A stretch of DNA of 63,339 bases, counting the filler. It is 3 parts of 3 records of this genome, joined end to end, with 100 filler letters (N's around TTAATTAATTAA, not from the genome) between each part and the next. Parts side by side here need not be neighbours in the genome. Positions count along the whole stretch, not along the records: positions 1 to 31,718 come from SRR2962707_667; 2 more parts are not named here. One strand, 5' to 3'. The notes under the pieces are model-generated. The model made no database searches. It was given only the letters and a program-made list of their open reading frames with translations, and was not told where the DNA came from. A program made the translations under genes and the position numbers. Shown here piece after piece: positions 394-23,461 of the stretch; positions within the stretch are counted from its first letter, which is position 1; each line of letters starts with the position of its first letter.

Positions 394-1383
394 ATGGACG
401 ATTTAAGCAAGATTTTAGAAAGCTCATTTGCCAAAGCCGGTGCACGTGAAGACGCACACTGGGAGACGCTTACGGCTGCCCGCGGCGAAATCGCCAGTCG
501 CGCAAACGTTCCGGCGGTTACGGCACGCAAATGGATGTCCATTCTTGAAAGCGGCTCCGAAACAATCTCAGCTCCGAGCAATCAAAAAATCATCGAGAAA
601 ATCACGAAATGGGCTGGCCCTGAATCAACGGCGCAATGGCTTGATGCTTATCGTGATTTTGAAGAGGCCAGCCGTCGGACCCACAGGGTTGGGCTTGAAC
701 TCGCTGATCATGCCGGCATTGATGCCCGACTTGATCTCGAAGGCTTGCGCAATGAAGGTGCACTTCGGCAACGCCTGGTCTCGATCGCGGCACGGGTCAA
801 CCCAACATTGGACGTCCATCTGCCCAAAGAGATATTTGCCGAAGGTCCTGGTTTGGTTGCATCAGGATTAAAAAGCACAGACCGAGCCGAAGTTGCGGGA
901 ATGTATGAGCCCTTAAAGCATCTTGCCACAATCTCTGTTTCTCCGCGGTTTGATCGCGAAGACACCGCATGGCATGAAGCATGGCATTCTATCGAGCCGG
1001 TGCTGTCGGAGACAGAAGCCAAGGCCCTTCAAAAAGCCTTTCCCTCCAATCAGCACATGACAAGCCCTGAACGAGTTGCCGTTGCTTTTGCGCGCTGGGC
1101 AAAACTGAGAGATCGCCTGCCAGCCCCCCCCTCCTCCTCTTTATCGGCACGTAGCATAGCCTCAAAACTGAGAAGTTCGCTGCTGCCAGCTGGTCAAGAC
1201 GCTGTGAATGCAATTTTTGAAAAGGGCTATGACGGTACGCTTGGCAAGCGGATGGCGGTGATGATGAAAGATACCTATCCGGCCTTCCTTCAGAAGACAC
1301 AAGCCCCTTCCAAAGCGGCAAAAACATCCGCAGGAGAGGCTGCACCTCAAGCAAAGAGAAAATCACGGAGGATCCGCGTATGA
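394..1383 (+). CDS. Zincin-like (HExxH) metallopeptidase-domain protein with a basic C-terminal tail (polyvalent-protein MPTase-like)
   Basis: AGMYEP...TAWHEAWHSIEP (HExxH at 973-987), downstream ERVAVAF helix; ends APQAKRKSRRIRV. Paralogous domain in ORFs 2383 and 20849. Confidence 0.75.
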   Translation: MDDLSKILESSFAKAGAREDAHWETLTAARGEIASRANVPAVTARKWMSILESGSETISAPSNQKIIEKITKWAGPESTAQWLDAYRDFEEASRRTHRVGLELADHAGIDARLDLEGLRNEGALRQRLVSIAARVNPTLDVHLPKEIFAEGPGLVASGLKSTDRAEVAGMYEPLKHLATISVSPRFDREDTAWHEAWHSIEPVLSETEAKALQKAFPSNQHMTSPERVAVAFARWAKLRDRLPAPPSSSLSARSIASKLRSSLLPAGQDAVNAIFEKGYDGTLGKRMAVMMKDTYPAFLQKTQAPSKAAKTSAGEAAPQAKRKSRRIRV

Positions 1384-1625
1384 CGGATGTAGGAGGCATT
1401 GCGGCAGACCAGCTGGCGAGTTACGTCGAGCGGATTGAAAGGCTTGAGGAAGAAAAGGCCAACCTCATGGCCGACATCAAGGAAGTTTACGGCGAAGCAA
1501 AAGCCCTGGGCTATGATGTGAAAATTCTGCGTCAGATCATCCGCCTCCGCAAAATTGAAGAGCACACCCGGGCTGAACAGGAACAGATCCTGGAAATCTA
1601 CAAACGCGCACTGGGGATGTCATGA
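1380..1625 (+). CDS. gapR: GapR/DUF2312 (UPF0335) nucleoid-associated protein homolog
   Basis: QLASYVERIERLEEEKANLMADIKEVYGEAKALGYDVKILRQIIRLRK is the DUF2312 signature; ATGA overlaps with both neighbours. Confidence 0.9.
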   Translation: MTDVGGIAADQLASYVERIERLEEEKANLMADIKEVYGEAKALGYDVKILRQIIRLRKIEEHTRAEQEQILEIYKRALGMS

Positions 1626-20813: not shown

Positions 20814-20848
20814 AAGAAGGTTATTACTTTAAACGCGAGGATTGGCCG

Positions 20849-23461
20849 ATGCTGCCCCAGGACATTGATCGCTTAGAGAAGGCCCATTTGCAGTCACGCA
20901 TGCTGTTTGGTGAAACCCGCCGAAACTATGTTGCCAAACGTGCCGGCTTGTTGAACGAGCTGACCAAAGCCGGTCGCTTTCCAAAGGAAAATGCCGAACG
21001 TCTTGTGGAAAGTGCTGAAGCAATGTGGCTGCCGGGTTTCGATACGTTTTCCGCCCGTGGCCCTTCCATGCAGACCTCTCCGAATGCGGAGTATCTCGAA
21101 GCTATTCGCAAGGAAGTCGGGCCGGAACAGTTTAACTTGTTTGTTTCTTCATTGCGGGACTTTCGGGTGCGTGAGCATCAAGATCAGCAGCTGACCGATC
21201 AACTTGCCCGTTTTGTTCCCCCTGAGCGGTTCGCTAAACTTGAAGCCCAGACCACCGATCTTGAAGGATATCGCAACGATCTAGCCAACATGGTGCGCCA
21301 GATTAACCCGGCCATGTCTCTGGCAGGTGTTGAGCGCGGCTTTATGGCAGAGCAGGACCCGTCCATTGATCCCCTCAGCCAAACCATTGCGCTTTCGCTT
21401 GACCCCTCCCAGTTCGACCAGAAGAAGGCGGTTCATAAAGAACTGTTTCGCAGTGTTGCGGAAGGTCTGACTGAGAAACAACGCAAAGTGCTCGATCAGG
21501 CTTTTGGGTTGGCCACCCGGATTTCACGAGATGCTGGCAAGACCTGGGAAGAAGTGCCTGAAGGTGGTCAGGTAACACCAGATTCGGAAGATCCGTCTGT
21601 TGGCACTCTGACCGATGAAGACGGTGTCGTTATTCAGGCAGGGATCCGTATCCGCACGGAATCCTTTGACCGAGATAAGACGATAACGCGTGCTGCGGAT
21701 GCCTTTAGTGCCCTGGTCGCCGACAAGCGCAAACCAGCGCCTTTGGCCGAGCAGGCCCTCAAGCCCTTCCGTACCTTCTTCGAACGCAGCGCCAACCTTT
21801 TGCACGGCCGCGGCTTCCAGTCTGTTGAGGATGTCCTGAAACGGGCACAGGACGGCACTGTAGGGGCGCGCGCGGCGCGGATTGCTGCAAAACCGGGCAT
21901 TCGCATGCCTCTTCCAAAGGACAATCCTGGAGGGGCCGATGGCGTGCGCACCGCGATCGCCAAAATGACCTCTCAAGAGCTGGCGCTGGCCATCGGACAT
22001 CAAAAAGAAGTACTCGCGGATAAACGAAGGGCACAGTATTCGCTGGTAAACCGCATCTTCCGATATCGGGATGTCAGCGGGACGGCCGAGACCACCCACA
22101 GCCAAACCAAAGGCAACAAGCACAAGCGGCGCGACCGGGCCGAGGTCAAGCAATTAACCCGGGCACTTACCGCCTTGATGGCTGAACACCGTAAACGTGC
22201 TTCTCACAATGTTGCCGGGGAGTTCAAGATGCCAGATCCTGGCGCGCGTAATGTGATGTCTTCACCGCGCGAGGAGTTCGCCAATCAAATGAACCGCCAA
22301 CAAAGTGCTCAGATGCCTGCACATGAGGGTCATGTCGCGGTTTCAGCGTCACAAGAACAGAACGGCCGCTTTGATGTAAAGTGGCATGATCCGGACACCG
22401 GCAAAGGCTTTCCTCTGGCGGGAGATGCTAACGAAGCAGGAGCGTTTGCGATGATCCAGGCGTTTCAAAGTGTCACTTCTGGTCCCAAAAGCCCGATGGC
22501 AGAACGGCTTGTCGGGGAAATCAATCGTGCAGGCGCGCTGAACAATGCCGATATTAATCTTCTGCGGAGCAGCGACCTTATCGACAAGGATCTTGATGCA
22601 GCTATCGGACGCCGAGATCTCAAGGCTTTTGTTTATCCGCTCAAAACCGGTGACGTGATTTTCCAGATGTCGGATGGCAGTTGGCATGCTGGCAAACGCG
22701 AAGAGTTTATTGCTGTGGCTAAACAGACTGGTGATCAGCATATGCGTGCAGCTGCTGATGAACTTGTCAAAAGCACAGGCAAGGTTCTTCCGTTTGAGCG
22801 GACCCGCGACGGCAACACCCCCTCGCCTTCGCCATCATCCTCAAGCGCAGCACGTATGGATGTCCCTGAACCACGGCCGACAGCACCAGCGGCCAGCCTC
22901 GACAAGATGGCGGCTTCAGTCGGTATGGCAAAGCCTTATGTGCTCGATACAAACGACGACGGGCTGAAGGATGCTGCCAGACGGGATCTTTCGGACATCT
23001 CGGTCTCAAACCTGTCAGAAATTCACAAGGCGACGGAACAAGCCCTTCGTTCTGCCAGTACACCTGCTGAGCGCGATGGTTTAATGCGTGGCAAGTTAAT
23101 GGTTGCGGACGTGTTGAAATCCAAGACGGCCGGTGTCAACGTATCGGCCCAACCTGCAACCAATCCAAGTGTGTCTGTTGCATACAAGGTAACGACAGAC
23201 AAGCTGTTGGGGGATGAGCGGAAACGTCTTGAAGGGCTGTCTGCCAAAGACTTGAAAGGGATGTATAAGAAGACGCAAAATGCGCTCGAAACATTGCCTA
23301 AAGGGGGCAATGCCACACCTCGCGATCTTAGGGAACGTCAGCACTTGACCCAAGGCAAGACCGCTCTTCAGGAAGTGATGCGTAACAAGGGAATTGAGTT
23401 ACATTCATCCAATGAGCAGCCGGGCCAACAACGCGCGCGTAAGGCGGGACCTAAACGCTAG
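20849..23461 (+). CDS. 870-aa protein with an inactive zincin-like domain, two C-terminal helical repeats and a basic tail; paralog of the giant protein's C-terminal part
   Basis: LANMVRQINP...AVHKELFRSV...AADAF...FFERSANLLHGRGFQSVEDV aligns with the giant protein's LTDMVSEINP...GLHELYHSL...AAEAF...LYQRMNNILHGNGFRSWQDV. Ends QQRARKAGPKR. GAGGA RBS upstream. Confidence 0.85.
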   Translation: MLPQDIDRLEKAHLQSRMLFGETRRNYVAKRAGLLNELTKAGRFPKENAERLVESAEAMWLPGFDTFSARGPSMQTSPNAEYLEAIRKEVGPEQFNLFVSSLRDFRVREHQDQQLTDQLARFVPPERFAKLEAQTTDLEGYRNDLANMVRQINPAMSLAGVERGFMAEQDPSIDPLSQTIALSLDPSQFDQKKAVHKELFRSVAEGLTEKQRKVLDQAFGLATRISRDAGKTWEEVPEGGQVTPDSEDPSVGTLTDEDGVVIQAGIRIRTESFDRDKTITRAADAFSALVADKRKPAPLAEQALKPFRTFFERSANLLHGRGFQSVEDVLKRAQDGTVGARAARIAAKPGIRMPLPKDNPGGADGVRTAIAKMTSQELALAIGHQKEVLADKRRAQYSLVNRIFRYRDVSGTAETTHSQTKGNKHKRRDRAEVKQLTRALTALMAEHRKRASHNVAGEFKMPDPGARNVMSSPREEFANQMNRQQSAQMPAHEGHVAVSASQEQNGRFDVKWHDPDTGKGFPLAGDANEAGAFAMIQAFQSVTSGPKSPMAERLVGEINRAGALNNADINLLRSSDLIDKDLDAAIGRRDLKAFVYPLKTGDVIFQMSDGSWHAGKREEFIAVAKQTGDQHMRAAADELVKSTGKVLPFERTRDGNTPSPSPSSSSAARMDVPEPRPTAPAASLDKMAASVGMAKPYVLDTNDDGLKDAARRDLSDISVSNLSEIHKATEQALRSASTPAERDGLMRGKLMVADVLKSKTAGVNVSAQPATNPSVSVAYKVTTDKLLGDERKRLEGLSAKDLKGMYKKTQNALETLPKGGNATPRDLRERQHLTQGKTALQEVMRNKGIELHSSNEQPGQQRARKAGPKR

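Follow-up and report, generated by a model that had tools for sequence, protein, structure and literature searches.

A repeated junction tag in a giant plasmid polyvalent protein encoded beside intact and dead zincin-like domains

Locus organization

The window (the whole stretch of DNA analysed, 63,339 nucleotides, whose second half, beyond an N spacer, is unrelated eukaryotic DNA) contains a locus of a marine bacterial plasmid that encodes three co-oriented proteins, A, B and C, of which B is a giant of approximately 6,100 residues. A GapR-like gene and a further gene, D, sit in the same orientation between A and B. The features are given below (MPTase, metallopeptidase; B residue numbers are counted throughout from TTG 2329, not from ATG 2383).

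394 to 1383, + strand: gene A, 329 aa; helical hairpin at the N terminus, intact MPTase, basic C-terminal tail
1380 to 1625, + strand: GapR-like DNA-binding protein (PF10073, E 3.6e-32)
1622 to 2266, + strand: gene D, 214 aa; matches phrog_318 (E 4e-5) over aa 5-51 only; syntenic orthologs
2383 to 20700, + strand: gene B, giant polyvalent protein, approximately 6,105 aa from ATG 2383
17278 to 17925, + strand: intact MPTase of B; HELYH at 17644-17658, E5132 at 17722-17724
20728 to 20814, + strand: terminator-like hairpin (20728-20753) and promoter-like box (about 20792-20814); consensus matches only
20849 to 23461, + strand: gene C, 870 aa; N-terminal hairpin resembling that of A, then the dead MPTase, a middle region that is conserved, helical hairpins and a basic tail
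21125 to 21904, + strand: dead MPTase of C; KELFR at 21437-21451, T280 at 21686-21688, insert at about 21512-21670

The modules of B comprise an N6-MTase, an MTase with a Strawberry-notch helicase, MutS-I, the MPTase and a basic tail (Pfam matches: N6_Mtase, AAA_34, Helicase_C_4 and MutS_I), with segment 1885-3535 made up of an NPPF-type adenine MTase and an SF2 helicase. The MPTase of A occupies residues 77-297 (HEAWH at 973-987; the third-ligand E226 at 1069-1071). C-terminal tails are basic (in A, net +7 over the last 25 residues) and presumably resemble VirB/D4 signals. Gene D may encode an HD-type nucleotidase that has degenerated. In the window, B and C seem to be transcribed separately, because the terminator-like hairpin and C's own promoter-like box lie between them; this box resembles one before B (about 2352-2373), both being consensus matches only. 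RNA reads from one sample covered B in four short pieces only.

Among nine related elements, five carry the A/B/C trio, and in the other four (Azospirillum) A is fused to B and C is missing, so that the co-occurrence expected in the preliminary description holds for part of the set and the trio is not a fixed one. A is the N-terminal module of the fused giants, joined in some elements and separate in others. The idea of an obligate three-part machine is not supported, given the four elements lacking C and the hairpin and separate promoter-like box that precede C in the window. The Azospirillum gene after the giant encodes an HExxH and tags of the kind described below, but was taken neither for C nor for a fourth copy, since neither domain profile matches it. 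The GapR-like gene lies between A and D in G001, G040, G041 and NZ_CP136683, and type IV secretion system (T4SS) or coupling-protein genes lie near the relatives in NZ_CP136683, G040, G042, G044 and G045, with VirD4 in G001; none was found within positions 1-31719 of the window. For the relatives, the locus is, as their gene context indicates, cargo of a conjugative alphaproteobacterial plasmid. An order-wide search matched two of 39 genomes, one of them with a phage-like copy.

A shared zincin-like domain

A zincin-like domain is common to A, B and C. BLASTP among the 25 window ORFs (A-B, 2e-8; A-C, 1.5e-5; B-C, 6e-5; no cross-match beyond these pairs among the matches listed) and profile-profile comparison (A-B, 5e-23; B-C, 2e-21; A-C, 1.6e-7) were significant for all pairs, bearing out the earlier proposal of a paralogous set, although the common unit measures approximately 220 residues rather than the 150 first suggested; A and C can also be aligned upstream of it, from A47 and C60. 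Two copies are intact and one is dead, as had been described: A has HEAWH, B has HELYH and C has KELFR, and at the position of the third zinc ligand A and B have Glu, and C has Thr. That Glu is kept in 15/15 A-type and 11 of the 12 B-type representatives examined, and among 186 non-C rows HExxH is intact in 179 and absent in 7.

In the structural model of A (pLDDT 90), helices at residues 122-135, 188-198 and 224-241 and strands at 140-142, 169-172 and 177-180 form a three-stranded sheet after an N-terminal helix, with HExxH inside helix 188-198. The domain behaves like the polyvalent-protein MPTases of Iyer 2017 (PMC5512222), which are described with an HExxH helix, a downstream Glu helix, three strands and a variable inter-helix insert. 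Relatives of the domain carry InPase and LPD38 fusions, and the top viral fold matches are polyvalent proteins (best E 4e-3), so the preliminary assignment to zincins of the polyvalent-protein kind stands. Known families were otherwise distant: the A/B/C MPTase domains had no Pfam match at E 1, no Pfam MPTase model among them; a PDB sequence search with the domain profile gave no match below E 0.48, and the profile missed the N4 vRNAP MPTase and scored only 5.5 bits on P1 DdrB; Foldseek of the A model against the PDB returned nothing at E 0.001; tblastn of the B domain against annotated phages gave no match; NCBIfam yielded nothing useful and an Atlas search only unnamed clusters. Among weak fold matches to the A model were PPEP-2, a Pro-Pro endopeptidase, and related zincins (6fpc, Z 6.9, rmsd 4.1, 140 aligned over residues 107-279; 1yqy, Z 6.8), with Z values within the range of unrelated helical matches (ranks 45 and 49 of 50, identity 10-12%) and a different biology. 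ArdC of plasmid R388 (PMC7213743) shares a plasmid gluzincin-type domain with HExxH and a Glu helix but is a small protein, and its ArdC-N single-stranded DNA-binding domain has no Pfam match in A, B or C.

Copy C confirms the suggestion of a pseudo-protease and extends it to a conserved family. HExxH is missing from all 29 C-type rows (18 clusters), which rules out recent decay; of 18 representatives none has the full motif, the first His surviving in 1, the Glu in 4, the second His in 3 and the third-ligand Glu in 9. Conservation across these rows indicates that C shares its ancestry with the A and B copies, that its zinc site was lost early and that it has been retained since. Homology to the A and B domains is clear by sequence, and window C has a beta-rich insert of approximately 55 residues between the two ligand helices. 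The C model contains the helices, but its core strands (residues 158-188) stay below pLDDT 50, and a fold search with it found no zincin among the best 50, only generic helical-hairpin matches, including ribosomal-protein rows. C matches no Pfam family over its length, and a C-terminal hairpin common to B and C was unsupported by profile search. P0043, P0053 and P0055 each join a C-type domain to an A-like one. A complex prediction for A (1-303) with C (1-355), made without alignments, scored 0.00 and counts neither for nor against binding. No conserved pseudo-MPTase family was described in the open-access literature that we searched.

A junction tag in module linkers

Beyond what the preliminary description held, the linkers between modules of the giants contain a short tag, approximately [AQS]-[FY]-[SK]-[VLIT]-G, which is kept at seven joints of B.

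3028 to 3045, + strand: tag 1, AYFSTT, F236; FS in 7/7 aligned sequences, VFS[VL]G in 4
4663 to 4683, + strand: tag 2, PVAFSAN, F782; conserved island in a variable linker
5683 to 5703, + strand: tag 3, AVAFKVM, F1122, start of the first MTase module; 7/7 aligned sequences
6451 to 6471, + strand: tag 4, PKFSTGR, F1377; loose pattern in 5/7, LSIG in the other two
7972 to 7992, + strand: tag 5, PVAFKTE, F1885, start of the MTase-helicase module
12925 to 12945, + strand: tag 6, IQFSTGR, F3535, end of the MTase-helicase module; FS[TL]G in 7/7
18328 to 18348, + strand: tag 7, VIRYKAV, Y5337; IR[YF][KS] in 7/7, YSIG and FSTG in two

The strict pattern fits one of these seven joints, the others resting on orthologs, and the loose pattern is not enriched in window B taken alone (10 vs 8.6 expected), which counts against cutting at the tags. 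Two further loose matches, QEFTPY (1240) and QAYSTP (1996), were dropped as MTase TP motifs. Segment 1122-1377 of B matches phrog_5696 over profile positions 16-233 of 250, and four free-standing cyanobacterial homologs begin near tag 5.

Across 30 plasmid-type representatives we counted 60 tags against 11.8 expected, with an approximately five-fold excess (40 vs 7.5) in a held-out set of 19 proteins that were looked at only after the pattern had been fixed. A single protein carries up to 14 nearly identical tags, with 13-14 in the Azospirillum giants (13 vs 0.9 expected in that of p5). Controls were not enriched (1 vs 0.68 in 23 plasmid genes; 2 vs 0.96 in 22 other window ORFs; 1 vs approximately 1.0 in five methylase-helicases without a profile match to the A/B/C MPTase). 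Tag flanks were more linker-like than those of other x[FY]xxG sites (0.749 vs 0.704, P 3e-5, a significance overstated because related proteins are not independent), and among the Pfam matches listed none is cut by the strict tag or by B's seven tags. The core [YF][SAK][VILTA] follows within 45 residues of 52/120 A-type and phage domains (background 16%); after B-type domains the tag was found in 4/18, which is no enrichment and counts against cutting. The strict tag is absent from 9/30 plasmid-type representatives, including P0053 and P0055, giants with an intact MPTase, which also counts against cutting.

Tags bound natural module swaps. In a seawater contig the module upstream of tag 1 is swapped at nt 3045 (tag 1 was recognised only after this swap had been seen), and in a second seawater contig everything upstream of nt 4678, in tag 2, is swapped; G044 has a 140-residue cassette with QFSVG at both ends. 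Such swaps do not prove cutting, because crossovers favour any conserved island. Tag codons differ (AGC, TCC and TCG for Ser; four for Gly) and the surrounding sequences are unrelated, which places the constraint on the protein. The tag as a DNA recombination site is disfavoured by this codon variety, although one cassette bears a 15-nt direct repeat at its ends.

Interpretation

In viral polyproteins, a protease is embedded in one long chain whose junctions repeat a common sequence. We consider it somewhat probable that B is likewise a polyprotein, cut at its tags by the MPTases, with C as a non-cutting partner; here the likeness is known from sequence, and B differs in being a bacterial plasmid protein with a metalloprotease. 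Enzyme modules would be strung on flexible, tag-bearing linkers, and the intact MPTases of A and B would recognise this tag and split B into individual effectors, among them DNA methylases and the methylase-helicase, probably after transfer, in the recipient, via a type IV secretion system. C may time or shield processing by binding tags or MPTase domains, which it would not cut, a role that we propose tentatively. More doubtful is a general scheme in which conjugative plasmids deliver virus-style polyproteins whose five-residue tag is cut in the new host by plasmid zinc proteases, a pseudo-protease on the same tag delays processing until transfer, and anti-defence enzymes are swapped or gained as tag-bounded cassettes.

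Cutting is favoured by the intact HExxH in nearly all non-C rows, by tag enrichment, linker position and swaps ending at tags, and by the three C-type and A-like fusions; of the roles first suggested for the domain, that of processing protease gains support from the junction tags. It is weakened by the absence of C from four elements and by precedent, since it is reported that the ArdC protease is dispensable for conjugation, with HhaI degradation not seen (PMC7213743), and that ArdC, TraC1 and N4 vRNAP move uncut (Iyer 2017, PMC5512222). The latter work proposed autoproteolysis of polyvalent proteins and describes, as here, several MPTase copies, an adenine MTase with a Strawberry-notch helicase, MutS-I and a T4SS context; its excerpted text names neither a cleavage signal nor an MPTase family that is catalytically dead, its 'inactive' referring to the unprocessed protein and the PBECR domain. 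Likewise, no paper in our open-access search identified a cut signal in plasmid polyvalent proteins. The antirestriction methylase-helicase DarB of phage P1 resembles B 1885-3535 in pairing an adenine MTase with an SF2 helicase, but the helicase of B is of the Strawberry-notch kind, and BLAST at E 0.01 does not match B to DarB, which lacks both HExxH and the strict tag.

The tag could instead be a binding signal, by which a chaperone, coupling protein or MPTase-fold domains maintain the giant in an unfolded or threaded state ready for type IV transfer, with C as a tag-binding chaperone. This would account for all of the enrichment, linker and swap data, for the persistence of a dead clade and for tags in the C proteins themselves (10 vs 1.5 expected, often 80-370 residues before the basic tail), and ArdC is reported to function without catalysis (PMC7213743). 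We nevertheless think it unlikely: pure binding needs neither the HExxH nor the Glu ligand that non-C copies so widely keep, and in the A-plus-phage group, mostly phage-like members without a T4SS, the domain is likewise followed by the core motif.

Quite improbable, in our judgement, is that the MPTases are effectors against recipient proteins (for example, defence or SOS regulators), the tag a conserved linker favouring exchange, and C an effector in its own right, with the dead domain serving solely as a scaffold. Iyer 2017 (PMC5512222) lists recipient proteins as an MPTase target, and the tagless giants with intact MPTases, C's own promoter-like box behind a terminator-like hairpin and the lack of C in Azospirillum would all fit; this leaves unexplained, however, up to 14 near-identical, codon-varied tags per protein and why controls lacking the MPTase show none above chance. 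Least probable is a stable A-B-C complex assembled via the paralogous domains, in which C would inhibit the two active copies or act as their decoy. Synteny in five elements, the A-B fusions and the three C-type and A-like fusions favour this complex, but four elements without C and the apparently separate transcription of B and C oppose it.

For cutting at the tags, the seven mapped sites supply exact positions for the long-proposed self-cutting of polyvalent proteins. Because one locus holds a candidate enzyme (A, free-standing), candidate substrates (the seven joints) and a natural dead control (C), self-cutting is testable with small constructs. If true, it would explain the action and evolution of plasmid proteins of 6,000-9,000 residues, would make module boundaries annotatable from sequence and may yield a new sequence-specific protease.

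Three genes in the bacterial part of the window carry a common zincin-like domain, intact in A and B and lacking its catalytic motif in C.

Genes of the window sharing the zincin-like domain, with active-site residues
394-1383, gene A, HEAWH with E226
2329/2383-20700, gene B (giant polyvalent protein; residues numbered from TTG 2329), HELYH with E5132
20849-23461, gene C (dead copy), KELFR with T280

The domain of A, B and C was matched by BLASTP among 25 window ORFs (2e-8 to 6e-5) and by profile-profile comparison (A-B 5e-23, B-C 2e-21, A-C 1.6e-7), a homology that bears out the three-way alignment of the preliminary description, as the motifs do its reading of two intact copies and one dead. 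The model of A (pLDDT 90; 39-sequence alignment) consists of a helix, three strands, a HExxH helix and a Glu helix, the same layout as that given for the metallopeptidase domains of polyvalent proteins (MPTases) by Iyer et al. (PMC5512222). Fold matches to solved zincins were weak (PPEP-2, Z 6.9, rmsd 4.1, 140 aligned), the best viral fold matches were large polyvalent proteins, and B also contains N6_Mtase (1231-1344), Strawberry-notch helicase (2410-2996) and MutS_I domains. The domain fits the known MPTase theme of polyvalent proteins, for which several copies per protein have already been described; P0121, a protein of 4,460 aa, contains the present domain in four intact copies.

These findings rest on the left piece of the window, mobile DNA of bacterial origin with umuCD, a resolvase, transposase-like genes and MerR. 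At 31720-31819, N runs surround the spacer TTAATTAATTAA between two unrelated pieces, and this junction of plasmid piece and eukaryotic DNA is an assembly artefact, not gene transfer. The right piece holds eukaryotic genes in pieces (SPRY, HECT, amidohydrolase and VPS13), comprising at 32060-62456 a large SPRY/HECT ligase-like gene, a dihydroorotase-like amidohydrolase (minus strand) and VPS13. On the left, 23965-31461 is a cargo transposon: its transposase-like gene is accompanied by an AAA partner and a resolvase, and it also holds umuC/umuD, a MerR regulator and an SBF transporter.

We searched 1.84 billion representatives with the domain profile (1,181 matches at E 0.001) and took 216 domain rows, 215 with an aligned motif, from the best 150 of the 1,181 matches together with the loci. 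With the C class set by region 356-655, outside the domain, HExxH was missing in all 29 C-type rows and intact in 179 of the 186 others; the 18 representatives of C, with a mean identity of 34%, retain H1 in 1 case, the catalytic Glu in 4 cases and H2 in 3. On this sequence evidence, C is a pseudo-protease that has been conserved. In a FastTree analysis of 201 rows, rooted at the midpoint after removal of the motif columns and of 15 fragments, and from which no order of events is claimed, the A, B and C types formed separate groups, with support of 0.85 for C together with three dead N-terminal copies and 0.45 for C alone. The three copies come from P0043, P0053 and P0055, in each of which an intact A-like MPTase is joined to a C-type module; four further dead rows were placed among B types. 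An insert of ~55 aa was found solely in Thalassospira-like C proteins. A motif in the middle region of C (aa 520-640; window 22400-22760) is highly conserved, with AFVYPLKTGDVIFQxxDGxW as its consensus, and has no Pfam match.

The domain was matched in only 2 of 72,556 plasmid records. Synteny in Thalassospira lucentensis NZ_CP136683 is ssb-A-gapR-D-B-C, adjoining VirB/VirD4, with A, B and C 35-43% identical to those of the window, and all three copies share a single contig in G001 (near-identical to the window), G040, G041 and G043 (where a 2,601-aa ORF begins with an A-type domain). The preliminary description named co-occurrence of the trio as a check: the trio was present in 5 of 9 elements (L013, near-identical to the window, being left out), whereas four Azospirillum elements (NZ_CP032326, G042, G044 and G045) each encode a single 6,100-9,100-aa protein with an A-type domain at one end and a B-type domain at the other, and no C copy was found in them (three by whole-genome search, one by tblastn of the plasmid). 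Five of 15 distant C clusters, whose longest contig equals in length that of an A- or B-type protein, appear from these lengths to be paired with A- or B-type genes, misses in this comparison not being absences.

Between A and B, the GapR-like gene (1380-1625) is 91-94% identical among relatives, with neighbouring genes at only 25-60%. Gene D (1622-2266) shows a weak match to HD-type nucleotidases of phages (phrog_318, E 4e-5); the His/Asp residues expected of such enzymes are seemingly missing in 5 of 5 aligned copies, and D may be a second dead enzyme conserved in the cluster. The box TTTCTTG-3nt-TATAATAGTTTT is common to the upstream regions of B (2352-2373) and C (20792-20814), and a related AT-rich stretch precedes A (359-387); co-regulation through these elements is possible. 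A search with the same pattern gave no box upstream of either B or C in G040, G041 or NZ_CP136683.

The C alignment contained a recurring short motif, and the giants were therefore scanned for this tag (strict pattern [AQSP][FY][SKA][VLITA]G), a motif of module linkers. In counts that include related, hence non-independent, proteins, strict tags numbered 13 versus 0.9 expected in the giant of Azospirillum p5 (its most over-represented 3-mer being QFS), 60 versus 11.8 in 30 plasmid-type representatives (9 of them without a strict tag), 10 versus 1.5 in the 18 C proteins, 34 versus 22.8 in 102 phage-like proteins and 40 versus 7.5 in 19 proteins unseen at pattern writing. Controls gave no excess: 1 versus 0.68 in 23 plasmid genes, 2 versus 0.96 in 22 other window ORFs, and 1 versus about 1.0 in P1 DarB and four cyanobacterial methylase-helicases taken together. 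A loose pattern was not enriched in window B (10 versus 8.6), in which seven joints are kept in six orthologs (F236, F782, F1122, F1377, F1885, F3535 and Y5337); by flank variability among 202 conserved aromatics, F782 and F1885 ranked 2nd and 3rd, F1122 17th, F236 23rd and F3535 76th. B segment 1122-1377 matches positions 16-233 of a 250-position phage family, and segment 1885-3535 has matches over 96-100% in plasmid proteins of cyanobacteria; in 4 of 4 checked homologs the match begins no more than about 25 residues from the N-terminus, and the protein extends 400-900 aa beyond it.

In phage-like proteins (P0047-P0173, L010 and L011), a [YF]-S-hydrophobic motif often lies C-terminal to the MPTase domain, which suggests a family-wide site just past it. 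A HExxH motif and 2-3 tags are also present in the gene after the Azospirillum giant (L009 39190-44976; L016 12610-17511); the domain profile does not match this gene, which possibly encodes a far-diverged MPTase.

Module swaps end at tags. G044 is 97-98% identical to the p5 giant, with 140 extra aa spanning one QFSVG to the next and deletions whose ends lie about 20 aa or less from two other tags; in two seawater contigs, close kin of the window, N-terminal parts of B are replaced, and the replaced stretches stop within tag 1 (nt 3045) and tag 2 (nt 4678). Because swaps end at tags, tag codons are varied and tag flanks are unrelated, these comparisons show the tag to be a junction at the protein level. 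Such swaps are no proof of cutting, since crossovers favour conserved islands. We regard a tag that is purely a binding signal as unlikely, though the strongest of the alternatives.

Caution on cleavage is warranted because the ArdC protease is dispensable (PMC7213743), and because Iyer et al. give uncut examples (PMC5512222). Literature searches found no dead MPTase family and no cut signal; the supplements of Iyer et al., outside their scope, may show dead copies. That the MPTases are host-directed effectors seems improbable, and that A, B and C are a stable trio slightly more so. The comparisons establish the homology, the intact and dead sites, the synteny, the fusions, the tags and the swaps. 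The basic C-terminal tails of A, B and C, with net charges of +7, +5 and +4, resemble T4SS transfer signals, and judging from these tails the three proteins would pass through the T4SS. We lean towards a reading in which the MPTase of A, of B or of both would cut at the tag, and C may act as a guard binding the tag or the MPTase.
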